A stretch of DNA of 64,000 nucleotides from the IMG/VR virus record IMGVR_UViG_2939521961_000018. One strand, given 5' to 3'. Source of the DNA: a virus. Its lineage: Duplodnaviria; Heunggongvirae; Uroviricota; Caudoviricetes. The notes beneath the pieces are model-generated. The model worked only from the letters and a program-made list of their open reading frames with translations. It ran no database searches and was not told where the DNA came from. Of this stretch, positions 1 to 64,000 are shown piece after piece. A program made the position numbers and the translations under genes. How positions within the stretch are numbered: position 1 is the stretch's first letter; each line of letters begins with the position of its first letter.

Positions 1-408
1 TTAAAAGTAATGAGTTAGTTGATGAACAGAAGCTTTCGGTAATTGATTTGAGAATCGGGTAGCATAAACAGCCATATAAACGAAACTACAACTGCCGAGA
101 GTATCAGCTTCACAGGTCAGCCCTTTTGCATACAGCGTGATGGTATGCTGATGGCGGGGATTCAGTTCACCGCTGGTGAGCATGAGTTCCAGTTGTTTCA
201 TCAGCAGTGGAAAGGCCTGGTCCAGATGGTATGCATCCGCATCGCTGAACCGGCCTCTGATACCGGCGCGGTCGGCAAGGTAATGCAACCGGTTACCTTC
301 CTGCACCAGACGTGCCCCGAAACAGGGCGTCACGGTGCAGGGCAGCCCCCACCAGGGGCGGTCGTGATTGTCGTCGGGAAGTGTTGTCCCGTGGAGTGTG
401 TCTGACAC
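1..408 (-). CDS. cbeA: CbeA/YeeU-family type IV antitoxin; partner toxin CbtA expected just beyond window start
   Basis: N-terminal ~100 aa (MSDTL.GTTLPDDNHDRPWWGLPCTVTPCFGARLVQEGNRLHYLADRAGIRG) matches recalled E. coli YeeU/CbeA; C-terminal ~30 aa diverge; sits downstream of yeeT as in CP4-44. Confidence 0.8.
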   Translation of the reverse strand: MSDTLHGTTLPDDNHDRPWWGLPCTVTPCFGARLVQEGNRLHYLADRAGIRGRFSDADAYHLDQAFPLLMKQLELMLTSGELNPRHQHTITLYAKGLTCEADTLGSCSFVYMAVYATRFSNQLPKASVHQLTHYF

Positions 409-481
409 GATAAAATCCTTACAGAAAATCGGCTAAGAATGGTCCGGTAGTGGCGATAATTCTGCTCATCAGAATTCCCAC

Positions 482-703
482 TCAGTTCAGGGTGACGCTC
501 ATCAGCCGGACATACGGACCAAAACTGTCCTTACGGCGTTCAGCAAACACGGCCAGCACACCGGGAATATCCTGCACTTCACGACCGGTATACGCTTCAG
601 CACTGCCGTGCCAGCGGTATTTACCGGTACAGAACGGAAAAAGACGGGATGTCGGATGTTGTTGGTGAATACGCATGGCTTCACCACGGGTGATAATTTT
701 CAT
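482..703 (-). CDS. yeeT: YeeT-family protein (DUF987)
   Basis: 73-aa ORF MKIITRGEAMRIHQQHPTSRLFPFCTGKYRWHG matches recalled YeeT; conserved position between radC-like gene and cbeA. Confidence 0.8.
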   Translation of the reverse strand: MKIITRGEAMRIHQQHPTSRLFPFCTGKYRWHGSAEAYTGREVQDIPGVLAVFAERRKDSFGPYVRLMSVTLN

Positions 704-765
704 AATGGGATACCTCTGAAGACAGAAGATAAAAGTGAAAACAGGTGTGATGTGGTTGTGACGGG

Positions 766-1257
766 TTAAAGCAGACCATGTTCGGCAAAGGAGAAAACCT
801 GGTTGCCACCGACTATCAGATGGTCCGGCACCCGGATATCCACCAGGCCCAGTGCCTGTACCAGACGTTCGGTGATAAGCCGGTCTGCCTTACTGGGTGT
901 GACTTCACCGGACGGGTGATTGTGTGCCAGTACCACGGCAGCGGCATTGTGGTACAGGGCGCGTTTAATCACTTCCCGGGGATGGACTTCCGTGCGGTTG
1001 ATGGTGCCGGTGAAGAGGGTTTCACCGGCAATCAGCTGATTCTGGTTGTTCAGATACAGCACCCGGAATTCTTCACGCTCCAGTCCCGCCATGTTCAGAA
1101 TCAGCCATTCCCGTGCTGCACGGGTGGAGGTGAAGGCCACGCCGGGTTCATGAAGATGGCGGTCCAGGGTTTTCAGGGCCCGTTGAATGAGGCTGCGCTC
1201 GCCGGGCGTCATCTCTCCGGGCAGAAAGGAAAGTTGTTGCATTGTGCTTCTCTCCAT
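766..1257 (-). CDS. yeeS: RadC-like JAB-domain protein (YeeS/YfjY family)
   Basis: JAB/MPN motif HNHPSGEVTPSKAD near C-terminus; island synteny. Confidence 0.8.
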   Translation of the reverse strand: MERSTMQQLSFLPGEMTPGERSLIQRALKTLDRHLHEPGVAFTSTRAAREWLILNMAGLEREEFRVLYLNNQNQLIAGETLFTGTINRTEVHPREVIKRALYHNAAAVVLAHNHPSGEVTPSKADRLITERLVQALGLVDIRVPDHLIVGGNQVFSFAEHGLL

Positions 1258-1743
1258 TCAGTCGATGATGCGCATAATGGCGCTGCATTCCGGATGCTGC
1301 AGGGCGTAATCCCGCAACCGGTAATAATGGACCGTCATGGCATAATTCTCCATACGACAGGCATGATGACTGTACGTCATCAGACAGGCGGCAATACCGG
1401 CGGCTTCCGGGCTCATTTCAGCGCGGTTACCGTTCATGGCATTGAACAGTACCCATGTTTCGTCATCATCGTCATCCGGTTCGGGTGCCATAAATGCCCC
1501 GCCGTTGTTCAGGGTGTACAGATTCCAGATACCACCGCAGTAGTCTTCGCACAGACGGTCCATCCAGCCGAAGACACGGGGCTCCAGGGTCACCCACTGT
1601 GGAATGAGGCCAAAATGCTGCGGCCAGAAGCTGATGCGCTGTTCATCAGGGACGAGAGTAGCAACCAGCTGAGGTGGGTTATTCCCTGATGCAGCGGTTA
1701 CGGAAACAGAAGGTGTGGTGGAATTATGCGTAACGGTTGTCAT
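1258..1743 (-). CDS. KlcA/ArdB-like antirestriction protein (YfjX/YafX family)
   Basis: 161-aa ORF with acidic DDDDDE patch, immediately upstream of radC-like gene as in CP4-type islands; family assignment from memory. Confidence 0.65.
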   Translation of the reverse strand: MTTVTHNSTTPSVSVTAASGNNPPQLVATLVPDEQRISFWPQHFGLIPQWVTLEPRVFGWMDRLCEDYCGGIWNLYTLNNGGAFMAPEPDDDDDETWVLFNAMNGNRAEMSPEAAGIAACLMTYSHHACRMENYAMTVHYYRLRDYALQHPECSAIMRIID

Positions 1744-1834
1744 GAGATTATTCCTTATAAAAAGTAAATGAATGGAAGAATGTCCGGAGGCAGGGACGGA
1801 AGTGAGTCAGGACTGCGCTTTCAGGGAAAAGGCA

Positions 1835-2653
1835 TCAGCGCATGCTCTCCAGCAGTGTTTCTGCCATCACCCACAACGCCCGGTTGAGCTTAATGTCGGT
1901 GTCGATGCTGTGAATGGTACGGGTATGGATACGTTTTCCTCTGGCACTGCGACCGGAAATCCCGCCTTTCAGCATATTCTCCTGGATGGTCTGATAAGCA
2001 CTCCACAGGTCCTTACCGTAATCCTCCCGGCGTCGTGGCGTCAGAATGTCGGCGGTGGTGACGGGCTGATGTTCGTCACCATAACGGTAAGTCAGTGCCG
2101 CCTGTGCCAGCGCCTGGCGTGACGGTGGCGGCAGGACCAGCGACTGCATGGCATCACGCTTCTCCTCTATCCGGTCAAACACGCCCACCACCTCGTAAGC
2201 CCCTTCGATAACTTTCTCCACCACATTTCCCCGGTGTGGAACACGCACTTCCCCCAGAGACTGGCCACAGACGCACCCGTTCTGGCAGACGAACCTGAAG
2301 TAACCCGGCAGCATCTGGTAGCTGGAAGTACCGTCATGGGAGTTCAGCAGGATGATTTCAGGGACATGTTGTCCGTTTATCTCCCCGTCACGGCGCAGAC
2401 GCAGCATGTGTTTGGTGTATCCCCGGCGGCCCGGGTCGCGCACGCGGATCTGGTAGGCGAAGAAGGGCTGAAAGCCCTCCCGCTGCAGGCTTTCTAGTAC
2501 GGTGATGGTGGGAATGTACGCATAGCGTTCACTGCGGGAGGTATGCCGGTCTTCCCCAAAAATACTGGGCACATAGTGCATCAGTTCTTCATGTGTCAGC
2601 GGGCGGTCACGGCGTATCTGGTTTACATGACCAAAACGACTTGCTAATCGCAT
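1835..2653 (-). CDS. DUF932/DUF945-family protein (YfjQ-like)
   Basis: 272-aa ORF in the conserved position upstream of the antirestriction gene in P4-type islands; family assignment from memory. Confidence 0.6.
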   Translation of the reverse strand: MRLASRFGHVNQIRRDRPLTHEELMHYVPSIFGEDRHTSRSERYAYIPTITVLESLQREGFQPFFAYQIRVRDPGRRGYTKHMLRLRRDGEINGQHVPEIILLNSHDGTSSYQMLPGYFRFVCQNGCVCGQSLGEVRVPHRGNVVEKVIEGAYEVVGVFDRIEEKRDAMQSLVLPPPSRQALAQAALTYRYGDEHQPVTTADILTPRRREDYGKDLWSAYQTIQENMLKGGISGRSARGKRIHTRTIHSIDTDIKLNRALWVMAETLLESMR

Positions 2654-2859
2654 TATTTGCTCCTTATGAATGAGTTAGCGGTATAAATGAAAAAGCCGCG
2701 TCTCCCGGAGAAGACGCGGCCTGACAGATGAAATGAATGACGTTTATTGTCTGAGAAGCCCTCCACTGGTGAGCTGCGTATTTTCATGGAAGGAGTGAGG
2801 TAGCCTGAGTTTAACGGACACTCCTTCCTGAAATAGAATGGCATCAGAAGGAGCTAATA

Positions 2860-3162
2860 ATGAGCAGAAAAACCCAACGTTACTCTAAAGAGTTCAAAGC
2901 CGAAGCTGTCAGAACGGTTCTTGAAAATCAACTTTCGATCAGTGAAGGCGCTTCCCGATTATCTCTTCCTGAAGGCACTTTAGGACAATGGGTTACCGCC
3001 GCCAGAAAAGGGCTCGGTACTCCTGGTTCCCGCACGGTGGCTGAACTGGAATCTGAAATTCTGCAACTGCGTAAGGCGTTAAATGAAGCTCGCCTTGAGC
3101 GAGATATATTAAAAAAAGCAACAGCGTATTTTGCACAGGAGTCGCTGAAAAATACGCGTTAA
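2860..3162 (+). CDS. IS600 OrfA (HTH, leucine-zipper transposase N-terminal part)
   Basis: MSRKTQRYSKEFKAEAVRTVLEN typical IS3-family OrfA. Confidence 0.9.
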   Translation: MSRKTQRYSKEFKAEAVRTVLENQLSISEGASRLSLPEGTLGQWVTAARKGLGTPGSRTVAELESEILQLRKALNEARLERDILKKATAYFAQESLKNTR

Positions 3163-3197
3163 TCGAACAATGGCGACAACAATTTCCCATTGAAGCG

Positions 3198-4016
3198 ATG
3201 TGTCAGGTATTTGGTGTATCCAGGAGCGGTTATTACAACTGGGTACAGCATGAACCCTCAGACAGAAAACAAAGTGATGAGCGGCTAAAACTGGAGATTA
3301 AGGTGGCACATATCCGCACTCGCGAAACATATGGAACCCGGCGGCTCCAGACGGAGCTGGCAGAGAATGGCATCATCGTTGGTCGTGACCGACTGGCACG
3401 TCTTCGTAAGGAGCTAAGGCTACGCTGTAAGCAGAAACGCAAGTTCAGAGCGACTACGAACTCGAACCACAATCTGCCAGTTGCGCCAAATCTGCTGAAC
3501 CAGACGTTCGCTCCTACAGCACCAAATCAGGTCTGGGTGGCGGACCTGACGTATGTTGCCACACAGGAGGGATGGTTGTACCTCGCTGGCATCAAAGATG
3601 TTTATACGTGCGAAATTGTCGGCTACGCCATGGGAGAGCGCATGACAAAAGAGCTGACAGGTAAAGCTCTGTTTATGGCGCTCAGGAGCCAGCGCCCACC
3701 TGCCGGGCTAATCCACCACTCTGATCGAGGTTCACAGTACTGCGCATACGATTACCGGGTCATACAGGAGCAGTTTGGTCTGAAAACATCAATGTCGCGT
3801 AAAGGTAACTGTTACGACAACGCTCCGATGGAAAGCTTCTGGGGAACGCTGAAAAATGAGAGCCTGAGCCACTATCGTTTTAATAACCGGGATGAAGCCA
3901 TCTCAGTAATACGGGAATACATTGAGATTTTCTACAATCGTCAGCGTCGTCACTCTCGTCTGGGGAATATCTCCCCGGCAGCCTTCAGGGAAAAATATCA
4001 TCAGATGGCTGCTTAA
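3198..4016 (+). CDS. IS600 OrfB (DDE transposase catalytic part; made as OrfAB fusion by -1 frameshift)
   Basis: DDE integrase core (HSDRGSQY, CYDNAPMESFWGTLK); -1 frame relative to orfA. Confidence 0.9.
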   Translation: MCQVFGVSRSGYYNWVQHEPSDRKQSDERLKLEIKVAHIRTRETYGTRRLQTELAENGIIVGRDRLARLRKELRLRCKQKRKFRATTNSNHNLPVAPNLLNQTFAPTAPNQVWVADLTYVATQEGWLYLAGIKDVYTCEIVGYAMGERMTKELTGKALFMALRSQRPPAGLIHHSDRGSQYCAYDYRVIQEQFGLKTSMSRKGNCYDNAPMESFWGTLKNESLSHYRFNNRDEAISVIREYIEIFYNRQRRHSRLGNISPAAFREKYHQMAA

Positions 4017-4194
4017 AAAAAGAACAAATGGTAGTGTCCGCTATTGCCAGTACACCTCAGAGATCACCCAATATCCCCATCGGGATCGGGTAATAACTGG
4101 CCAGACTGTGATCAATTCAGATGCCATTTGGCAGTAAAAGGGTCTTCGGGCAATAAACGTGATGCACAACCCGGCATATCTGTTGATCCCTGAA

Positions 4195-20085: not shown

Positions 20086-22446
20086 ATGAAAAGTATGCAA
20101 TCAAAAACGGGCTCTCCACTCGTTCGAACTGAAGCCGAGCTAGAAAGCCGGCTTACTTCAGCACTAAACATAGCATTTCCTAACATTCCTCGCGAAGATC
20201 TTATCGAACAGCGCCATTTTACCGTTCGGCTAGGCCATGGAACTTACAAAATAGATAGCGCCGCACACTGGAAAAAATACGGGCGAGCGGATGTTTTGAT
20301 CTTTCATCGGGAGAGACCACTTGCGGTTATTGAACTGAAACGTGAAGACCTGACACTGACCCATGATGATTATGAACAGGCTCAAAGCTACGCTAACCAG
20401 TTAACACCACGTCCGCCTCTCGTTGTAGTTACGAACGGTAAAGATACGCGCGTTTATGACTCAAGTAATGGACAACAGTGGTCGGGTGGACAGGATGCCT
20501 CGGCAGCGGTAAACAAGATGCTCGCCAATTCTGCAAAGTTGGCGGCGGCTGACATGCGCTGGGCTATTGAAGCCTTGATGGGGCGAGAAACTAATGCTTG
20601 GGTGCCAGCTGTGCGAGAAGAAACAGCCCGGCTGCTGATTGATATAACTGATCAGCCTGGGCATTCAGAACATCCATTTGCCAACAACCTACTTTTTCCT
20701 CGCAAAATCACGTCTCTTGTAATTGAATCTGCTGTGATGGGTACAGCTTTCACTATCATTGAGGGTGATGCACAAAGCGGAAAAAGCAGTTGCCTCCGTG
20801 AAATTTCGCTAAAAACGGAAAGTAGCGATCTTTTGGCTGTCCTGATGTTACGAGGTTCCGGACCAGGACTATTTCAGGCTCTGGCCAATCTTTTTGCAGC
20901 TGAATTTGAATGGAATTTAACCTCAAATGATGCACGTAACTGGTTAAGACGAATGTCTAACTGCACTGAAGGTCCATCGCTTATGCTTGCTATCGACGAC
21001 GTTGAACCAGGCTCCCAAATGGCTACTGATCTTGAGGAACTTGCGGGTATACGTTTTGGCAACAGGCTGGTGGTTGTTCTGACGACCTATCATGCCAACG
21101 CGTTACTGAAAAATCCAAACGGACGAACTCCGTCTGCAATTGGTAGCCGGTCGAAGGTATTTAAAACATCGCCTATGTCCCTAGATGAATTTAAGCTGGC
21201 GCAACAGATTCTCTCGGACCAGCGGATAGTTTTTCAACAGGGAGCAGAATACGCCGATGACTACCGCTCGCCTTGGGTTCTTCGCACTATTTATGATGAC
21301 ATTGTGCGCAATCATCAATACCAGAAAACGGATCTTATCGCCTATCTTCCTCCATCACCCGGTATGGAACTTATAGATGCTGCGCAAAAGAGCTATGAGA
21401 GTCAGTATGATCTTCTTCGTTATTATCGGGTTCTTGCACGCTGCGCACTAGCTGACACAAACTCCCACTCAGTAGAATTAATGTTTGCTAAAGCGAATGG
21501 ATTTGTCGTGCGGTATGACGCACTTTCTGACGAAGCTCGTGGTGTAGTGAATGAGTTAAAACATATGGGGGCAGTTCGTATTTTTCGCCTTTCAGGATGG
21601 GAAGATGTTGTGGTGCCGACAGTTCCCGCAGCTTACCTTCTGGAACTGTCGGATGCTGTTTGTGATGAACTGGTTTTACGGGCAGAACAAGACCCTCAAG
21701 ACGCCGGGGCTTGGCTTGGCGAACGGCTAGACGCCACTTATCTTGGAGATATGATCGGTGCTCAAGCCATACGCCGTATGGCAGCTAAAGAGAGATATTT
21801 CAGCTTTGGAATTATTCAGGGCCTTCTCAGCATTGAGCCATATAAAGAACCTATAAAAAACGGATTGTTTACTTTAGCCATGCCAGACAACCAACAAGTC
21901 AATCTAAAGATTGAGGATGGATTAGCGTGGATTTCTAAACACGGGGATGATGCAAAGAGTGTTCTGGTGAATTTAGAGGATCAAATCCCAAAGGTCATTT
22001 CTAAATCAACCAGTTGGATGATACTCGGGCAACTAGCGAAACTGCCGTCAGCAGAGGTGGGTGACGATGATCAGCGTATAGACGCCTATATTTTACTGAG
22101 CATTGGGCGCTGCCCATTTCCTCTAATTCGCACGAATATAGAAGGATTGCCTTACTTTGAGCATAATTTTGGCGATCAGGGTGATGTTCTTTGCCTAGAA
22201 AAAGCGTCTATTGAAGTTGCTACTCAGGCGATGGCTGATTTATTTTCAGCCCCATGGCTCTATGCGGACCAGTGGGTGGATACAGCTATCGCGACCGGTT
22301 CTATACATTTACTGCATCGTTTGTTTGCTGCTTTAAACACAGTGATATTGCGTAGAATACCCGTGCAATCCGACTGGGCTAATGAAGCACTTAATCAACG
22401 TGTCTCACCAGCCCTTAAGGAAGCCATACGATCATTATCTTCGTGA
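20086..22446 (+). CDS. Nuclease-NTPase fusion: N-terminal PD-(D/E)xK domain plus P-loop (STAND/NACHT-like) NTPase plus C-terminal helical domain
   Basis: N-term GRADVLIFHRERPLAVIELKRED (D...ExK core); Walker A IIEGDAQSGKSS; Walker B LMLAIDDVE; then ~450 aa of unassigned sequence. Confidence 0.6.
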   Translation: MKSMQSKTGSPLVRTEAELESRLTSALNIAFPNIPREDLIEQRHFTVRLGHGTYKIDSAAHWKKYGRADVLIFHRERPLAVIELKREDLTLTHDDYEQAQSYANQLTPRPPLVVVTNGKDTRVYDSSNGQQWSGGQDASAAVNKMLANSAKLAAADMRWAIEALMGRETNAWVPAVREETARLLIDITDQPGHSEHPFANNLLFPRKITSLVIESAVMGTAFTIIEGDAQSGKSSCLREISLKTESSDLLAVLMLRGSGPGLFQALANLFAAEFEWNLTSNDARNWLRRMSNCTEGPSLMLAIDDVEPGSQMATDLEELAGIRFGNRLVVVLTTYHANALLKNPNGRTPSAIGSRSKVFKTSPMSLDEFKLAQQILSDQRIVFQQGAEYADDYRSPWVLRTIYDDIVRNHQYQKTDLIAYLPPSPGMELIDAAQKSYESQYDLLRYYRVLARCALADTNSHSVELMFAKANGFVVRYDALSDEARGVVNELKHMGAVRIFRLSGWEDVVVPTVPAAYLLELSDAVCDELVLRAEQDPQDAGAWLGERLDATYLGDMIGAQAIRRMAAKERYFSFGIIQGLLSIEPYKEPIKNGLFTLAMPDNQQVNLKIEDGLAWISKHGDDAKSVLVNLEDQIPKVISKSTSWMILGQLAKLPSAEVGDDDQRIDAYILLSIGRCPFPLIRTNIEGLPYFEHNFGDQGDVLCLEKASIEVATQAMADLFSAPWLYADQWVDTAIATGSIHLLHRLFAALNTVILRRIPVQSDWANEALNQRVSPALKEAIRSLSS

Positions 22447-22622
22447 CTAAGCAATGGGATTTTAATACATAACGAGCATCTGTCCACGCAAGTTAACAAT
22501 TGCCTTGGCTCGATATTTTGGTTTCTAGTGCATATATGCTGATCTTCTCTTCGTTGATCTGATCTTACCCACCAATAGTGGACACAGGACTAAGTGAGTA
22601 AACTCTCAACCAGAGGTGACTC

Positions 22623-22922
22623 ATGACAAAACCAGTATCAATCAGCAAGAAGCCCCGTGAACAACATTCGCCTGAATTTCGTAACGAAGCCCTGAAACTC
22701 GCTGAACGCATCGGTGTGGCCGCCGCAGCCCGTGAACTCAGCCTTTATGAATCTCAGCTTTATGCCTGGCGCAGTAAACAGCAGCAACAAATGAGTTCGT
22801 CAGAGCGCGAAAGCGAACTGGCCGCTGAAAATGTCCGCCTTAAACGACAACTGGCGGAGCAGGCTGAGGAACTGGCCATCCTCCAAAAGGCCGCGACATA
22901 CTTCGCGAATCGCCTGAAATGA
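22623..22922 (+). CDS. IS3-like OrfA
   Basis: [32 protein letters not shown] close to IS3 InsE. Confidence 0.85.
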
Positions 22923-23762
22923 AGTATGTCTTCATCGAAAATCATCGGGCAGAGTTCTGCATCAAAGCGATGTGTCGTGTACTTCGGGTTGCCCGCAGCG
23001 GCTGGTATGTCTGGCTCAGGCGTCGTCACCAGATGAGCCTTCGCCAACAGTTTCGGCTCACCTGCGATGCCGCTGTCCATAAGGCATTCTTTGAGGCAAA
23101 GCAGCGATACGGTGCTCCCCGCCTTGCTGACGAACTGCCGGAGTTCAATATTAAAACCATTGCCGCCAGCCTGCGTCGTCAGGGGCTGCGGGCGAAAGTT
23201 CAGCCCGGTCAGCTACCGTGCACATGGCCTGCCCGTATTGGAGAATCTGCTGGAGCAGGACTTCAGCGCCAGAGGCCCGAACCAGAAGTGGGCGGGTGAC
23301 ATCACGTACTTGCGTACCGATGAGGGCTGGTTGTATCTCGCAGTAGTCATCGACCTGTGGTCACGCGCCGTCATTGGCTGGTCGATGTCACCGCGAATGA
23401 CAGCACAACTGGCCTGTGATGCACTACAAATGGCGTTGTGGCGGAGAAGACGCCCGGAAAGCGTCATTGTTCATACGGACCGTGGTGGTCAATACTGTTC
23501 AGGGGATTATCAGGCGCTGCTGAAGCGACACAACCTGCGTGGCAGTATGAGTGCGAAAGGCTACTGTTATGACAATGCCTGTGTGGAAAGCTTCTTTCAT
23601 TCGCTGAAGGTGGAATGTATCCACGGGGAACGCTTTAGCAGCCGGGAAATAATGCGGGCAACGGTGTTTAATTATATCGAGTGTGATTACAATCGCTGGC
23701 GTCGTCACAGTGCCTGTGGCGGTCTCAGCCCGGAACAATTTGAAAACCATAATCTCGCTTAG
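22919..23762 (+). pseudogene. IS3-like OrfB transposase, frameshifted
   Basis: N-terminal part in frame 2 (22919-23299) and DDE core in frame 0 (23067-23762); the frames switch near 23200-23215, beyond the normal orfA/orfB slippery site. Confidence 0.7.
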
Positions 23763-25182
23763 GGCCGTGTCCACATTACGTGGGTAGGATCAATTTTCCT
23801 GATGACCCCATCGACATAGTATTTTTTCAAAGCAAGAATTGCCTTCTCGCTATGTATTCCTGATAGCTTGATCAGGATATCAAAGTCTCTTTCAGATATA
23901 TTCCCCTTTGTCATGTGTCACTCCATGAATCAAATTTCATAGTAATCAATCTTTCTTTGATCGACTTATAGATAATAAGATCAGAAATGATAAAAAAGTA
24001 ACGCATATTTCTTCTCGTCATGTCTACTTATAAAATTCAAATGAACTAACCTGAACTACTTACACTGGAATATCATTATATTGGAATAATTATAAAACTG
24101 AACAAAATGGTCAATGTAATCTGGTTAATTTATAAATATTTACATTGCGTGATGATATTTAATTCCAGTGTTAAGTAATGTCACATGCCTATTATTGGTT
24201 ACTACTTTGTAGGTGTTTTGGTTCGGCGTTAATATCATTGGTCATAATCACCTGTGAAAGTTTATTCTTGAAATGTTATAGGTATATTACTTGCAATTAA
24301 AAATGAGAAATTTATTATTATTGTGTTTTGCAAATATAATAATTAAAAATTTATTATAAATTATGATTAGAATTGACAATATAAAAGAATAATAAAACTC
24401 AATATGAAAATAATTATCATCTGGTTTGATACTTTTGCTGTTGATTACAGGAATAAAGTGTCAGAATAATATTGTTATTGGGTAAAAAAAGCCTCCACTA
24501 TATGTGGAGGCAAACCCTTAGATAGTTCTATTGAGGCAAGTATGTTATAAATCTGCCTTATCTTTTATAGCATATAAAGATATGTATGCTATATTTTTTT
24601 TGAAGAAATTTTTCCAGAAATTACAGTAATACAAGAAATATTAACTGGTGTGATTTTTGGATGTTTAATAAGTACAGTGTACTTATATTTTTGTAATAAA
24701 GATGAACGCGTCCTTTAGATAAACTGAAAAATATTAAGCATGTCTCATGTGGTTTTCTGAATCAAAACTCTTTTCAGTCTTTGATTTTTTGTTAAAAACA
24801 GGTTTATTGCAAGGGTGTTGTTGTGAAATGTGTTTTGGTGTCGTTGTGATTTTATGGTGATAATGTGAATTTTTATCCTTTCAAGATGGCTCCCTGGACG
24901 TTAAATACAGTGGAAATTTATATTAAGATATAAATATAACTATTGCGTTATTTAAATTATTGTCTATTACAGCTCCAGTTAATAGAGCCTGAAGTAATTT
25001 CTTAGTATTTCATCATAAGCGTTTATCTATCGTCTCTTTCTAAATTAACCGGTCGTATTACAAGGTGCTGAATCTGATTAAGGAATGATACTTAGGGGAT
25101 TATGGCTGACTTAATAATTAGATAACTGATAAATGACTATCAGGGGGATATCGTTAAGTCAGCCTTTAAAATCAAGCGATTA

Positions 25183-25623
25183 TATAGCTGGTGACTCTTT
25201 TCGAAGAGCATCAAGGTAGTCAGCGTACCATTGCATCATTTCTCGTCTTCCTTCAAGGTAACGAGCATGGTTGTATGTACCACGAATGCTGTTTTTGTCC
25301 GTATGTGCAAGTTGCATTTCAATCCATGCACTATTGAATCCTTGCTCGTGTAGAACAGTACTCATTGTATGACGAAATCCATGCCCGGTAGCTTTTTTGT
25401 CATAGCCAATCTTCTTCAAAACCATATTGACGCTTGCATCGCTGATAGGCCTGTTAACATCATTTCTTCCGGCAAAGATGTATCTGTATCTTCCAGTCAG
25501 TTCTTTGAGGATTTGCAGAGACTGGATTGCCTGATCTGACAGAGGGACGATATGCTCCTTCCTCATTTTCATCCGGGTCGGAGGAACTTCCCATATCTTT
25601 TGGGTAAAATCGATCTCACACCA
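25183..25623 (-). pseudogene. P4-type tyrosine integrase, 3' fragment (C-terminal 147 codons) truncated by IS600
   Basis: Catalytic C-terminus HGFRHTMSTVLHEQGF...IRGTYNHARYLEGRREMMQWYADYLD; reading frame enters from the IS600 end at 25624. Confidence 0.8.
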
Positions 25624-25666
25624 TGAGGTGTACTGGCAATAGCGGACACTACCATTTGTTCTTTTT

Positions 25667-26485
25667 TTAAGCAGCCATCTGATGATATTTTTCCCTGAAG
25701 GCTGCCGGGGAGATATTCCCCAGACGAGAGTGACGACGCTGACGATTGTAGAAAATCTCAATGTATTCCCGTATTACTGAGATGGCTTCATCCCGGTTAT
25801 TAAAACGATAGTGGCTCAGGCTCTCATTTTTCAGCGTTCCCCAGAAGCTTTCCATCGGAGCGTTGTCGTAACAGTTACCTTTACGCGACATTGATGTTTT
25901 CAGACCAAACTGCTCCTGTATGACCCGGTAATCGTATGCGCAGTACTGTGAACCTCGATCAGAGTGGTGGATTAGCCCGGCAGGTGGGCGCTGGCTCCTG
26001 AGCGCCATAAACAGAGCTTTACCTGTCAGCTCTTTTGTCATGCGCTCTCCCATGGCGTAGCCGACAATTTCGCACGTATAAACATCTTTGATGCCAGCGA
26101 GGTACAACCATCCCTCCTGTGTGGCAACATACGTCAGGTCCGCCACCCAGACCTGATTTGGTGCTGTAGGAGCGAACGTCTGGTTCAGCAGATTTGGCGC
26201 AACTGGCAGATTGTGGTTCGAGTTCGTAGTCGCTCTGAACTTGCGTTTCTGCTTACAGCGTAGCCTTAGCTCCTTACGAAGACGTGCCAGTCGGTCACGA
26301 CCAACGATGATGCCATTCTCTGCCAGCTCCGTCTGGAGCCGCCGGGTTCCATATGTTTCGCGAGTGCGGATATGTGCCACCTTAATCTCCAGTTTTAGCC
26401 GCTCATCACTTTGTTTTCTGTCTGAGGGTTCATGCTGTACCCAGTTGTAATAACCGCTCCTGGATACACCAAATACCTGACACAT
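25667..26485 (-). CDS. IS600 OrfB
   Basis: Identical protein to 3198-4016. Confidence 0.9.
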   Translation of the reverse strand: MCQVFGVSRSGYYNWVQHEPSDRKQSDERLKLEIKVAHIRTRETYGTRRLQTELAENGIIVGRDRLARLRKELRLRCKQKRKFRATTNSNHNLPVAPNLLNQTFAPTAPNQVWVADLTYVATQEGWLYLAGIKDVYTCEIVGYAMGERMTKELTGKALFMALRSQRPPAGLIHHSDRGSQYCAYDYRVIQEQFGLKTSMSRKGNCYDNAPMESFWGTLKNESLSHYRFNNRDEAISVIREYIEIFYNRQRRHSRLGNISPAAFREKYHQMAA

Positions 26486-26520
26486 CGCTTCAATGGGAAA
26501 TTGTTGTCGCCATTGTTCGA

Positions 26521-26823
26521 TTAACGCGTATTTTTCAGCGACTCCTGTGCAAAATACGCTGTTGCTTTTTTTAATATATCTCGCTCAAGGCGAGCTTCAT
26601 TTAACGCCTTACGCAGTTGCAGAATTTCAGATTCCAGTTCAGCCACCGTGCGGGAACCAGGAGTACCGAGCCCTTTTCTGGCGGCGGTAACCCATTGTCC
26701 TAAAGTGCCTTCAGGAAGAGATAATCGGGAAGCGCCTTCACTGATCGAAAGTTGATTTTCAAGAACCGTTCTGACAGCTTCGGCTTTGAACTCTTTAGAG
26801 TAACGTTGGGTTTTTCTGCTCAT
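26521..26823 (-). CDS. IS600 OrfA
   Basis: Identical protein to 2860-3162. Confidence 0.9.
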   Translation of the reverse strand: MSRKTQRYSKEFKAEAVRTVLENQLSISEGASRLSLPEGTLGQWVTAARKGLGTPGSRTVAELESEILQLRKALNEARLERDILKKATAYFAQESLKNTR

Positions 26824-27306
26824 TATTAGCTCCTTCTGATGCCATTCTATTTCAGGAAGGAGTGTCCGTTAAACTCAGGCTACCTCATATCTCCTTCGTT
26901 ACCGATTAATTCTTTCATCTGACGAATGAATTCTTCGTCTGACCAGTTATCTGTGAAACTCATTTCCTGCGATACCACGGAAGGTTGATAGCTGATTTCA
27001 TCGCTTTATTTGCTTCAAGCCACATTTTTGAATCACCAATAAATCTGGCTATTACTGCTTTGTTTTGTGCCGCACGAAGCATCTGGTGATTAATGGCTAT
27101 TTCATTGCGCATAACGCCTCCAGTTGTTTCTTTGCTGCTCTAATTAATTGTTTAACTCGGCGTGATAATTCAGATTCGTGCGGGTAGAAAGCGGACATGA
27201 CGCCGCTACCCGCGAGCTGAAAGTGCATCATGGGTAACTCCTTATATTTGATTGCATAACGAAAACGCCTCGAGTGAAGCGTTATTGGTATGCGGTAAAG
27301 CCGCGC

Positions 27307-27672
27307 TTAGGCGGCTGATGTTTCTTCTTTCAGGCTTTCGAGATATTTACGTGGGTCGTCGTAACATTGGCATTCGCTGTACCAATCCACCCAGCGATCA
27401 GTAAGCCCCACCTCTGATAAATCTTCATCGGTAAGGCTCTCATCCCACATCTCAAGGCCGTTAGCATTGCAGTAATCAGGCTTGATGTTGTTGTCATACT
27501 GAAAGGCGTCATAATCAGCCAGTGCGCCCATCAGGCGAACACCCTCTTCAACACTTGCCACTTCTGCAATGAACGGTTTCATAGGTACTTGCGGGATATG
27601 CCAGACACGTAATTTCATATTTCCTCCGTCAAAAAAATCGCCCTCACATTGGAGGGCAAAGAAGATTTCCAA
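27307..27672 (-). CDS. Phage early-left hypothetical protein
   Basis: 121-aa ORF; likely true start at MKLRVWHIPQVPM (about 27618); acidic C-terminus. Confidence 0.45.
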   Translation of the reverse strand: MEIFFALQCEGDFFDGGNMKLRVWHIPQVPMKPFIAEVASVEEGVRLMGALADYDAFQYDNNIKPDYCNANGLEMWDESLTDEDLSEVGLTDRWVDWYSECQCYDDPRKYLESLKEETSAA

Positions 27673-27761
27673 TAATCAGAACAAGTCGGCTCCTGTTTAG
27701 TTACGAGCGACATTGCTCCGTGTATTCACTCGTTGGAATGAATACACAGTGCTTATTCGTA

Positions 27762-28232
27762 CTAATAAAATACCCAATTTTCTGTTTCTTGGTTGTGTCC
27801 AAAGTTATATTCAATATCTGGTGTTGATGTATCAATATTTTTCATCCCATCAACAAGAGTTGATACAACAGCCAAATCTTGTTTTATTCTCATTAAATGG
27901 TATTTCTTCCGGCGCAATAAACTTTCAATAGCAAGTTTCTTCGTTGGGAATGCAAAAGATCTTTCTGCATTTTTTGCTACTTTCTTAATTGCATATCTAT
28001 TTCTCTTTTGTTTCCATTCCTGTAACCACTGATTTGGTGCTGGTTTAAAATTAACAATCCAATGCGCAGGAACCAACCATGCATAATGCTCTGTCTGATG
28101 AAAAGCTATATATTGAAGTGCGAATATTTTGATTCCATCTTCTTCAACTGTCGCCTGGAATCTCCAGAAAACAGGCATTCCATCATGTTCAGTTTCTGAT
28201 TCAGGAAAAGGTACGCTCCATGATTTTGTCAT
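27762..28232 (-). CDS. Hypothetical protein, AT-rich moron candidate
   Basis: 156-aa ORF, AT-rich, divergent from the 28433 gene. Confidence 0.45.
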   Translation of the reverse strand: MTKSWSVPFPESETEHDGMPVFWRFQATVEEDGIKIFALQYIAFHQTEHYAWLVPAHWIVNFKPAPNQWLQEWKQKRNRYAIKKVAKNAERSFAFPTKKLAIESLLRRKKYHLMRIKQDLAVVSTLVDGMKNIDTSTPDIEYNFGHNQETENWVFY

Positions 28233-28432
28233 ATCTCACCTCAAATAAGTGGTTTGCTGTCTAATTTCATTTTCTGGCGACCAACACAAGTCACACCCAT
28301 TTCACTGCGTGGCTTGCGGTAGTAAAGATTGTGCCTGTCTTTTAACCACATCAGGCTCGGTGGTTCTCGTGTACCCCTACAGCGAGAAAAATAGTAAAAT
28401 CCTCTTACCCCTACAGTAAGAGAGTAATTTAT

Positions 28433-28927
28433 ATGGATGTGTTATCTGGTATAACTGCCGCGAAACAGGCTTATGATCTGCTGAAGACAATAAAAGAAAC
28501 CAGAGACGATGCTGTTATCGCTAAAGCTATTGGTGATCTACACCAAAGAATAACTGACTTACAGATGCTTAATGCGGAGCTCTCTGGCCTTTATCAGGCC
28601 GAGAAGGAGATCGCAATGAAGCTTCGAGATGAAAATAGAAAAATCAAGATGTTTGTTGTGCAAGCTGAGAATTATGAACTTCATACAACTGAAGGTGGTT
28701 CTGTCGTGTATCGACCTAAGAGTCATTCCGATCCTTCTATTCAGCAGCATAACCTTTGTGCACATTGCTTCGGCGAACATAAAATATCGATACTTCAACC
28801 AAGCACGGTTACTATAAAATCTAATGGGTTCTTTGTGCATTCATGTCCTCGCTGTAAGAATGAATACCGGATGTATAGAGCGCCAGACCCTAAGCCTGTA
28901 TATGTACCGCCGCTGACAAATTATTAA
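28433..28927 (+). CDS. Hypothetical protein with coiled-coil N-terminus and C-terminal Cys4 zinc-ribbon-like motif
   Basis: CAHCFGEH...HSCPRCKNEY; opposite strand to the early-left operon. Confidence 0.45.
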   Translation: MDVLSGITAAKQAYDLLKTIKETRDDAVIAKAIGDLHQRITDLQMLNAELSGLYQAEKEIAMKLRDENRKIKMFVVQAENYELHTTEGGSVVYRPKSHSDPSIQQHNLCAHCFGEHKISILQPSTVTIKSNGFFVHSCPRCKNEYRMYRAPDPKPVYVPPLTNY

Positions 28928-28957
28928 TTTTATTCCTGAAATGGCCTCTTCACCCCC

Positions 28958-29320
28958 TTACTTTGTCAGGGGGATATCTCCTTCAGTTTTGACCATTCGC
29001 CTTAATACTTTCCTTAAGTCGATGTAAAGTTGAAGGTCTCCATTTGCTGCGGCATCAGCCATTTTTTGCCTGACAAGCAGTAATGTTTCATACGGCTCAA
29101 TAAGAATATCGTCATGAGTAATTAGGTGAAGCGTTGCCGCATCAACTATTCCTAGAGCTGCGCCAAGTATCAAAAATTCCCTGCTATTTTTGTCGCATGA
29201 GGAGATAAGCGTATTTAGCGCATACCTAATATTCTTTATAGCTGTTGTTAATGCTGCAATTTCTTCTATGGCGTCTTCTCCAATGAGCTTTTTAAGCTCA
29301 TATTTTTCTTCCTGACCCAT
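28958..29320 (-). CDS. Phage early-left hypothetical protein
   Basis: ORF-track ORF 28958-29404 trimmed to MGQEEKYELKK so that it starts just after the N stop. Confidence 0.4.
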   Translation of the reverse strand: MGQEEKYELKKLIGEDAIEEIAALTTAIKNIRYALNTLISSCDKNSREFLILGAALGIVDAATLHLITHDDILIEPYETLLLVRQKMADAAANGDLQLYIDLRKVLRRMVKTEGDIPLTK

Positions 29321-29322
29321 AA

Positions 29323-29595
29323 TTACCTCGCCGTCAGTTGTTTTGATTTCCGGTAGCCTGCCGCGTAAATGGCTACGTTTGGCAGGCAAATACTTCCACT
29401 GCATTCATCTGCCTTCTTGCAGCGAAGGCTTCCGAGTGATGCTGCTTTATCTGCTCTGACGCAACCAGAGAGCTTTAGCGCAATTTTTCGTGCCAATCGC
29501 TGTTCTTGCATTGCCTGTTCACGTTGAGCCTGTCTGCGTGCTCTGCGGCGATTTCTGGCGTTATCGTCAGCCAGATATGTAATGACTACTGTCAT
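29323..29595 (-). CDS. N-type transcription antiterminator (P22 gp24-like)
   Basis: Arginine-rich motif NARNRRRARRQAQREQ near N-terminus; C-terminus LPNVAIYAAGYRKSKQLTAR matches recalled P22 gp24 end; lies between OL/PL and the early-left genes. Confidence 0.7.
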   Translation of the reverse strand: MTVVITYLADDNARNRRRARRQAQREQAMQEQRLARKIALKLSGCVRADKAASLGSLRCKKADECSGSICLPNVAIYAAGYRKSKQLTAR

Positions 29596-34930: not shown

Positions 34931-35299
34931 ATGGAGAGTGATATGGACGAATCAAGAAAGCAGTTTGAGGAATACGTTGCCAAAAAATTGAGATTACCAT
35001 TCGAGATGATAACCGAGGCAAGAAATGGTGATAGGTACTTCGCATTTTCAAGCATGGATATTCGTCACTCCTTAAATGAGTGGTGGACTTTATGGCAGGC
35101 ATCGCGAGCAGCTATTGAACTGGATATCGACTGGCCAGAATCGAATGACGACTTTTGGAAAGATGGTGAAGAAGGTGCTTATGCGATGGGTTATGAGGAT
35201 GGGCGTGACAAAACGGTAATTGCAGTAATGAAAGCTATCAGAGCCGCTGGAATTAAAGAGAAGAATTTCGATGAAGCAAACAATATTCCTCCGAACTAA
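34931..35299 (+). CDS. Hypothetical phage protein
   Basis: 122-aa ORF upstream of ninB. Confidence 0.4.
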   Translation: MESDMDESRKQFEEYVAKKLRLPFEMITEARNGDRYFAFSSMDIRHSLNEWWTLWQASRAAIELDIDWPESNDDFWKDGEEGAYAMGYEDGRDKTVIAVMKAIRAAGIKEKNFDEANNIPPN

Positions 35300-35681
35300 G
35301 CAACAACAGCAAGCCGCAATCAACGCCATCCTCGCAACACCACTCGATAAAGACAAGCCAGTCACCATCCGCATTACTGACTACAAGCGCAACCTTGACC
35401 AGAACGCAAAATTTCACGCGATGCTGGCGGATATCGCACGTCAGGTTCAATGGTGCGATAAGTGGTTAAAACCAGAACAATGGAAGGTTTTGTTGATTAG
35501 CGGTCATGCAGTGGCAACAAAGCAGGAAGCTGATGTTTTGCCCGGCCTTGAAGGCGAATACGTCAACATTCGCGAAAGTAGCGCGCAGATGAGTGTGAAG
35601 CGTATGGCAAGTCTGATTGAGTACACGACAGCATGGGCTATTGGTCAGGGCGTCAGATTTACCGACAGGAGGTACGAATGA
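35271..35681 (+). CDS. ninB: NinB recombination protein
   Basis: 136 aa; lambda NinB-like, conserved nin order. Confidence 0.8.
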
Positions 35682-35854
35682 GACGACAGCGACGAAGTAT
35701 CACCGACATAATCTGTGAAAACTGCAAATACCTTCCAACGAAACGCTCCAGAAATAAACGCAAGCCAATCCCAAAAGAATCTGACGTAAAAACCTTCAAC
35801 TACACGGCTCACCTGTGGGATATCCGGTGGCTAAGACATCGTGCGAGGAAATGA
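35678..35854 (+). CDS. Nin-region small protein (NinD/NinE-like)
   Basis: [34 protein letters not shown] start/stop overlap with ninB. Confidence 0.55.
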
Positions 35855-36258
35855 CAATGCTTTTAATTCAACCTGGATTTGGACTTAGCATCAAAAAAGG
35901 CCACATGTTTGGTGAGAAAGAGTCACAACGAAAAATGGTGTCTATCCGGTTGCCATTTATCAGTATTTATTGGCTAAACAGGGAGGCAACAAATTATTGG
36001 TATACATGCGCCAGAGCAGCATTTAACGACCCTGACTGGTTTGTGAAAAACCACCACGCAGTTCGTCAGGCAAAGAGAAAGGCCAATATGACATACATGA
36101 AGGCGTATCAAAAAGCATGGAAAGAACACCGCGATCGATACCAACAAGACATGGAAAAGCTTGAATCAGAAAACATGGAATTAAGACGAAAGCTCGGTGA
36201 AGCAAAACGAGACATTGATGCTTACAAGCGACTTTTTAATGGTGAAAGCCATGCTTAG
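35851..36258 (+). CDS. Nin-region hypothetical protein
   Basis: Start [12 protein letters not shown] overlaps previous stop (ATGA); C-terminal coiled coil. Confidence 0.45.
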
Positions 36259-36427
36259 CCCATCCCAATCCCTTCAATACCAGAAAGAAAGCGTCGAGCG
36301 AGCTTTAACGTGCGCTAACTGCGGTCAGAAGCTGCATGTGCTGGAAGTTCACGTGTGTGAGCACTGCTGTGCAGAACTGATGAGCGATCCGAATAGCTCA
36401 ATGTACGAGGAAGAATACGATGGCTAA
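36251..36427 (+). CDS. ninF: NinF
   Basis: [40 protein letters not shown] matches recalled lambda NinF. Confidence 0.8.
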
Positions 36428-63218: not shown

Positions 63219-64000
63219 TCACTCCACCTTTTCATCAAGCCAGTCCGCCCACCATTGCATCATTTCTCTGCGCTTATCGAGATACTGAGCATGGTTGTAA
63301 ATACCGCGCACAGATCCGCCGTTGGCATGTGCCAGTTGCACTTCAATAGCGTCAGCAGGCCATTCGTGCTCGTTCATAATCGTGCTGAATTCATGCCTGA
63401 ATCCGTGACCGCTTTCCAGACCCTCATAGCCGATTTGTTTGATCACAAGTAGCACCGCGTTCTCGCAGATTGGCTTCTTCTTATCGTTGCGCCCGGCAAA
63501 AACAAATTCTGATACTGGTTTGGTGATGGAGCTTAACGTAGTGAGAAGTTCAACCACCTGGTCCGACATCGGGACAACATGAATTTTGCGTCCCTTCATC
63601 ACATTGGCGTCAATGGTGATAATCCTGTTTTCAAAATCGACGTTCTTCCATTGCATGGAACGAAGCTCTTTTGTTCTTAGGGCTGTGTAGCGTAAAACCT
63701 TGGTGGCAATGAGCGATACGATACTTCCTGAAAATGTTGCCAGTGCTTTATTGAATGCCGGGATCTGGTCTGCAGGAAGAAACGGGAAGTTCTTCTTGCG
63801 GTATCCCCTCATGGCGTCAGCAAGGTCAGGTGCCGGGTTATATTTAGCCCTGCCGGTGACAATAGCGTAACGGAAAACCTCGCCGCATCTTCTGCGGGCT
63901 TTATTTGCTCGCTCCATTGCACCGCGATCTTCAAATCTGCGGATTACTTCCAGCAGTTGCATCGGCTCAATATCCTGAATTTCAAGGCCGCCGATGATAG
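63219..64000 (-). CDS. P4-type tyrosine integrase, partial (5' end beyond window)
   Basis: LRTKELRSMQWKNVDFENRIITI, HGFRHEFSTIM, RGIYNHAQYLDKRREMMQWWADWLD; the frame stays open upstream of the first ATG to the window edge. Confidence 0.85.
   Translation of the reverse strand, partial: IIGGLEIQDIEPMQLLEVIRRFEDRGAMERANKARRRCGEVFRYAIVTGRAKYNPAPDLADAMRGYRKKNFPFLPADQIPAFNKALATFSGSIVSLIATKVLRYTALRTKELRSMQWKNVDFENRIITIDANVMKGRKIHVVPMSDQVVELLTTLSSITKPVSEFVFAGRNDKKKPICENAVLLVIKQIGYEGLESGHGFRHEFSTIMNEHEWPADAIEVQLAHANGGSVRGIYNHAQYLDKRREMMQWWADWLDEKVE

Follow-up and report, generated by a model that had tools for sequence, protein, structure and literature searches.

An IS600 copy without target duplication as the probable scar of a local deletion between two tandem argW elements in Escherichia coli O26:H11

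The insertion sequence (IS) IS600 is present in three copies in IMGVR_UViG_2939521961_000018, a stretch of 64,000 nucleotides recorded as a virus of the Caudoviricetes and called the window from here on. The second of these copies (25624..26887, - strand) is not flanked by a target duplication, and it is very probably the scar of a 6,515-bp deletion within two mobile elements, an island and a prophage, which lie in tandem at the tRNA-Arg gene argW of an E. coli O26:H11 chromosome. The evidence comes mainly from strain 11368: there the 60-bp sequences flanking copy 2 keep their order and strand and are separated by exactly 6,515 bp (NC_013361.1 3299275-3305789), an interval without any IS, and the longer flanks are 100% identical to the window. 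The two flanks are thus non-adjacent but collinear and equally oriented in an IS-free relative, as expected of a deletion junction, and the same intact layout is kept in strains FWSEC0001 and 97-3250. Since both flanks retain the ancestral orientation, the event was a deletion and not an inversion.

A preliminary description of the window, made from its letters alone, had taken copy 2 for a deletion or an IS-IS recombination junction. The comparison with related strains lacking the rearrangement agrees with this, since 11368, FWSEC0001 and 97-3250 all keep the intervening segment; the integrase and phage flanks are not contiguous in the IS-free relative, which was the contrary outcome considered there. 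The same description spoke of a fusion of island and prophage pieces, which is real, although these pieces were already neighbours in tandem at argW. The event was therefore a local IS600-associated deletion and not a long-range rearrangement, and most likely the missing DNA is gone and was not relocated within the genome.

The deleted segment comprised codons 1-249 of the island integrase, the middle (hybrid) attachment (att) core between the two tandem elements, the excisionase gene torI and about 12 early-left genes of the prophage, including erf and the anti-RecBCD gene, up to and including a 171-bp open reading frame (ORF) downstream of kil. Apart from IS600, this segment has no other match within the window, and the comparison of the window with 11368 reveals no microhomology at the deletion ends. 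Several apparent matches to the junction were obtained in relatives, but re-alignment showed that nearby pieces had been joined. Across 5,426 complete E. coli genomes and the contigs inspected, only one strain has this deletion.

Identical repeats of 1.26 kb are classic points of assembly collapse, and two direct IS600 copies around a 6.5-kb interval could in principle have been merged by an assembler. Such an artefact is highly improbable, because positions 21180-29566 of the window (8.4 kb, with both junctions) are identical to GenBank CP027572.1 5779234-5787620, a closed chromosome of 5,858,866 bp, and because the neighbouring IS600 copies 1 and 3 and an IS629 were resolved with proper duplications. 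The window as a whole aligns collinearly with FWSEC0001, an E. coli O26:H11 strain (NZ_CP031922.1 1499795-1566589), the aligned blocks being 99.92-100% identical and the differences IS-related only; its identity to O26:H11 genomes is about 99.98%. A 19.8-kb stretch of the prophage is covered over at least 80% of its length in 49 complete genomes, those listed being about 100% identical.

The copies were located by BLAST of the IS600 element against the whole window. Each of the three is 1264 bp long and they are mutually 100% identical; all of them match up to the same ends and diverge exactly there. The boundaries are therefore fixed, and no alternative boundary gives a duplication for copy 2. 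Copy 1 (2796-4059, + strand, inverted relative to copies 2 and 3) is a simple insertion in the island, flanked by GAG on both sides and placed between a DUF932 gene and an Ag43-type autotransporter. Copy 3 (46726-47989, - strand) is likewise a simple insertion, flanked by ACC/ACC, in the prophage gene directly downstream of the portal gene; this host gene is unnamed in RefSeq and probably encodes the scaffold. Copy 2 is complete, with its right inverted repeat at 25624 and its left inverted repeat at 26887, and it is bordered by CCA on the left (25621..25623, ancestral continuation TTCCCCC) and by TAT on the right (26888..26890, where the ancestral context reads ...GTGACATGAA immediately followed by TATCTCC). 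The GAG and ACC duplications, the CCA and TAT flanks and the ends of copy 2, without any hidden 3-bp duplication, are as the preliminary description had given them.

The identity of copy 2 as IS600 is unaffected by the missing duplication, which is explained by the deletion. Its length is 1264 bp, the terminal inverted repeats start with TGAGGT, and it is 100% identical to the RefSeq O26 'IS3-like element IS600 family transposase'. The two transposase genes have the orfA/orfB layout with a -1 frameshift, and RefSeq tags the identical gene as 'programmed frameshift': orfA (26521-26823, - strand) is a 100-aa ORF with the Pfam domain HTH_Tnp_1, and orfB (25667-26485, - strand) is a 272-aa ORF with HTH_21 and rve. 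The 3-bp target-site duplication is the only feature of the family absent here, and among the copies of the window copy 2 alone lacks it. A simple insertion, with its duplication hidden by wrong boundaries or decayed by mutation, is the default expectation for any IS and nothing more speaks for it; it is refuted by boundaries fixed by three identical copies, by CCA and TAT differing at three of three positions and by flanks lying 6,515 bp apart in relatives.

Copies 1 and 3 are both absent from FWSEC0001 and their junctions were not found in the 5,426 complete genomes. As none of the three junctions occurs in that collection, all three IS600 copies of the window are private to the strain, and their identity points to a recent IS600 expansion. 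An IS629-like element of 1310 bp (48797-50106), with ORFs of 108 and 296 aa, ends TGAACCGCCCCGG... and the duplication GAT, interrupts the P22-type major capsid (coat) gene and is also missing from FWSEC0001.

The absence of a duplication tracks with deletion beyond the window. Perfect 3-bp duplications were found in 12 of the 12 other IS600 copies examined: copies 1 and 3 of the window, one copy in each of FWSEC0001, 10159, 2013C-3513, 6883, CFSAN027346 and War, the nested pair of 97-3250 and two copies in 98E11. The only further IS600 without duplication lies in the nin region of FWSEC0001 (NZ_CP031922.1 1540170-1541433, flanks TTG/ATC), where it replaces 1,137 bp that are kept in the window at 35126-36262; it marks a further IS600-linked deletion, in another strain, of the same prophage. 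Both duplication-less copies are thus linked to a deletion.

To which mobile element the truncated integrase belongs is settled by three observations. The prophage has its own integrase gene, intS, which adjoins argW at the far end of the prophage in O26:H11 strains. The 3' part of this gene is in the window (63219..64000, - strand, Pfam Phage_int_M and Phage_integrase), collinear with intS-argW-yfdC of FWSEC0001; positions 63219-63962 belong to the prophage intS, and in relatives argW adjoins intS just past the window end. In prophage-free strains (2013C-3513; H113-H117), on the other hand, the integrase found beside copy 2 directly adjoins tRNA-Arg argW and precedes the same cargo of PapB, IS3 and HsdR-N. 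Finally, FWSEC0001 has three copies of the argW 3'-end core CTGCAGGGGACACCA: one at argW, one lying between torI and the integrase of the island, and one at the distal end of the island, about 100 bp left of the point that corresponds to the window start. The integrase consequently belongs to a second element, the island, in tandem with the prophage, as its earlier description as an island integrase implied. The idea that it is the prophage's own integrase, since it follows torI in O26 genomes, is ruled out by the same three lines of evidence.

The island integrase and IntS are 48% identical. The tandem junction of integrase, att core and torI is present in 68 complete genomes. K-12 matches the torI side only; the alignment breakpoints (query 1247 and 1262) bracket the att core. 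The relatives have the IntS/TorI layout of the KplE1 type, with intS at the argW end, torI at the opposite end and att cores that match the 3' end of argW; the torI/attR end of this layout is absent from the window.

On the island side of the junction the window retains the 3' remnant of the integrase gene (25180..25623, - strand), 147 codons and the stop, of an argW-island pseudogene of the P4/IntS type. The 147 codons of a P4-type integrase recognised earlier are residues 250-396 of the 396-codon integrase of FWSEC0001 and 11368, starting at Trp250 (TGG, the CCA of the + strand). The full-length parent in relatives has Arm-DNA-bind_3 (DUF4102), a central domain and the Phage_integrase catalytic domain (Pfam), and it adjoins tRNA-Arg in 2013C-3513 and others, as is characteristic of P4/IntS-type tyrosine integrases. 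The same internal stop at codon 223 is found in the island integrase of FWSEC0001 (L001 7181-8371), 11368, 97-3250 and 2013C-3513. Since all the O26-type relatives examined share it, the gene had become a pseudogene earlier than the IS600 deletion; other E. coli have intact versions of 396 aa.

The chimeric ORF of 193 aa reported before (25180..25761, - strand) does exist: from a TTG start it runs through 46 IS-derived codons and continues in the native frame into the 147 integrase codons. It covers only positions 45-170 of the 172-position Pfam Phage_integrase profile. Both N-terminal domains (arm-binding and central), the box I arginine (TGLRTVEL), which is the first catalytic one, and the internal stop at codon 223 were all in the deleted part. 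The chimeric ORF is an incidental by-product which, as judged from these missing parts, cannot give rise to a working recombinase. A collection of about 15 billion proteins contains no exact match to its 193 aa. Versions of 128 and 130 aa with ATG starts are mostly called on the intact pseudogene of other strains, and among the genomes with them only CP027572.1 has the IS600 junction. A promoter scan gave no promoter-like site pointing outward at the right inverted repeat end of copy 2. Every IS600 copy has this outward frame of 46 codons (in copy 3 it gives a 91-aa ORF), so that an in-frame fusion is a one-in-three accident.

On the phage side the junction cuts the ORF MSFTDNWSDEEFIRQMKELIGNEGD (- strand), the first 25 codons of a 56-aa early-left ORF located immediately downstream of kil. 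The cut after 25 codons had been noticed before and holds, but the true coordinates are 26889..26963 and the end given earlier was one base off. The 56-aa parent matches phrog_2123 (E = 4e-40). In relatives RefSeq skips this frame and annotates instead an overlapping 56-aa ORF (phrog_1723), whose start ATG was 4 nt past the junction and is deleted in the window. In the ancestral kil-erf sequence of FWSEC0001 (L001 15233-15497) the two 56-aa ORFs, which are in different frames, share about 90 nt; phrog_2123 and phrog_1723 are separate PHROG families, both labelled 'recombinase', of which RefSeq annotates one only. The last intact early-left gene before the junction is kil (26960..27112, - strand; phrog_2055, E = 1e-35), and next to it is a cIII-like gene (27097-27231; phrog_550). 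Both calls agree with the RefSeq annotation of identical DNA.

The kil side of the deletion is also a site that IS600 has used elsewhere. In strain 10159 an IS600 occupies exactly this nucleotide position beside kil, in the orientation of copy 2 and flanked by TAT/TAT, in a paralogous prophage at ybhC, and this insertion makes the kil-side endpoint a demonstrated primary IS600 site. In strain 6883 an IS600 lies 3 bp from the TAT site of the window (CTC/CTC), and War, CFSAN027346 and 98E11 have IS600 copies of the same orientation between kil and erf with perfect duplications, at 135 bp (War) and 375 bp (CFSAN027346) from that site. The kil-side insertions (window 26885-26895; L003 7937-9200; L009 1437-2700; L010, L011, L012) are all co-directional with pL transcription, and all except that of the window have perfect duplications. 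In 97-3250 (L002 5279-7809) one IS600 is inserted inside another in opposite orientation, with the duplications TAC and GTA, and this nested pair sits in the 384-bp gene upstream of erf.

At least three independent insertions of the same orientation lie within a span of 6 bp just downstream of kil, and several more are spread between kil and erf. In lambdoid and P22-like prophages, the bases that closely follow kil might be a true IS600 hot spot which repeatedly disables the recombination and excision modules of prophages of enterohaemorrhagic E. coli (EHEC), the present case being a weld into an immobile element of about 66 kb whose island genes would perhaps be read from the phage pL promoter. 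This wider proposal is doubtful.

IS3-family elements transpose by a copy-out-paste-in mode, and recombination between direct copies is their normal route to 'adjacent deletions'. For copy 2, the recombination of two direct IS600 copies is the most likely route. The ancestral order on the - strand would have been a P22/KplE1-like early-left operon with kil, small ORFs, erf, the 384-bp gene, the anti-RecBCD gene and further genes, among them DUF551, DUF4752 and two small genes, then torI, the hybrid att core, the island integrase (already a pseudogene) and the cargo. As a first step, an IS600 would have inserted just downstream of kil, in the recurrent target, duplicating TAT; a second IS600 in the same orientation would then have inserted into the island integrase with duplication of CCA. 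The two direct copies would next have undergone homologous recombination, excising the interval together with one IS as a circle, which would have been lost, and the product would be one intact IS600 with half of each duplication.

Several points weigh against this scheme. In none of the 5,426 complete genomes does an IS600 occupy the CCA site, or the TAT site within the argW prophage, so the proposed two-copy intermediate, and with it the immediate ancestral state, was not encountered among them. The TAT-site insertion of 10159 belongs to a paralogous prophage, whose flank is 98.5% identical. Because none of the three IS copies differs from the others, the survivor bears no trace of recombination. 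One-step and two-step routes give the same final structure, and both the sub-mechanism and the order of insertions are what we infer rather than observe. Finally, the loss of the ability to excise, discussed below, would follow from gene content.

The one-step route would be an adjacent deletion driven by the transposase, in which a single IS600 at the TAT site attacks the CCA position with sloppy strand transfer, possibly aided by the IS-excision enhancer (IEE), and no stable two-copy intermediate is formed. This is a possible but less likely origin of copy 2. It predicts a final structure identical to that observed, it accommodates the finding of the two-copy intermediate in 0 of the 5,426 genomes, and E. 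coli that produce Shiga toxin (STEC) and are positive for IEE, including O26:H11, show flanking deletions linked to IS3-family elements (PMC9397093; bioRxiv 10.1101/2023.06.07.543989). Nevertheless, given that this family transposes in copy-out-paste-in fashion, sloppy attack alone would not yield such deletions (review, bioRxiv 10.1101/2023.06.07.543989), and the iee gene is not within the window. As a rule, IEE events take the IS out and rely on microhomology (review, bioRxiv 10.1101/2023.06.07.543989), which makes them a poor fit to an intact copy 2 at deletion ends without microhomology.

Two successive deletions that spread left and right from an IS600 already inside the interval have also been considered. 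Such a starting point exists in FWSEC0001, which carries an IS600 in DUF4752, within the interval deleted in the window and oriented as copy 2. This route is very unlikely, as it needs at least two extra events, 11368 and 97-3250 are without the DUF4752 copy, and the right end coincides to the nucleotide with the proven primary TAT site, which is unexpected for a random endpoint. Recombination between direct copies remains the preferred explanation.

The complete arrangement can be followed in FWSEC0001, 97-3250 and 11368, read along the - strand of the window. It begins with yfdC, tRNA-Arg (argW) and intS, continues with an acyltransferase gene, the tailspike gene and P22-like late and then early genes, and reaches sie, the cIII-like gene, kil, the 171-bp ORF, erf, the 384-bp gene and the anti-RecBCD gene. 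Beyond the latter are DUF2737(p), Ea22-like(p), DUF551, DUF4752, two small genes and torI, then a gap of 263 bp and the 396-codon integrase pseudogene with its internal stop. The island cargo follows, with a PapB-like gene, IS3, HsdR-N, Ag43, yeeU and the csc and dsd genes. The kilobase at 24001-25000 of the window is very AT-rich (GC content 0.27) and is 99.96% conserved in FWSEC0001; from about 24300 to the integrase stop codon at 25180 no ORF of at least 40 aa was called.

Deletions of this kind are well known. In the long-term evolution experiment with E. coli, the IS150-linked deletions of rbs reportedly arose by recombination between an IS already present and a direct copy that had newly inserted. 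Copy 2 does not differ in kind from known IS-mediated deletions; what was removed here is the junction of two tandem argW elements. In O26:H11 and related STEC, IS3-family elements, IS600 among them, are amplified, and deletions of regions flanking the IS occur (PMC9397093; bioRxiv 10.1101/2023.06.07.543989). The case resembles the small structural polymorphisms linked to IS629 and IS600, and the prophage decay, of EHEC O157, O26, O111, O103 and O121, in that a lone intact IS3-family element without duplication has flanks that are separated but collinear in relatives, in a STEC lineage amplified for IS600 (PMC9397093). It shares with the IEE-promoted events of STEC the host lineage, the IS family and the deletions beside IS copies (PMC9397093; bioRxiv 10.1101/2023.06.07.543989), but differs from them in the intact IS and the lack of microhomology. 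KplE1 (CPS-53) of K-12 at argW is similar in that intS, adjoining argW, marks one end and torI the opposite one, and in its att core, which is the 3' end of argW; unlike KplE1, the present element is a full-length P22-like prophage in tandem with a second argW island, and its torI end is deleted in this strain.

As judged from gene content, the prophage would have lost its attR core, the excisionase TorI and its recombination module (erf and anti-RecBCD), and the island its attL core together with the first 249 codons of an integrase that was dead already. Island and prophage would thereby be welded into one element, which should not excise by the IntS/TorI route. The prophage appears multiply defective, with IS600 also in the probable scaffold gene and IS629 in the coat gene, and on these grounds too it should not excise. 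The deletion is an ordinary, strain-private case of a well-known IS process and brings no new principle. It may be of use for strain typing and for judging which prophages are still inducible, and it is an example of how the expansion of IS600 in O26:H11 erodes and immobilises prophages and islands.

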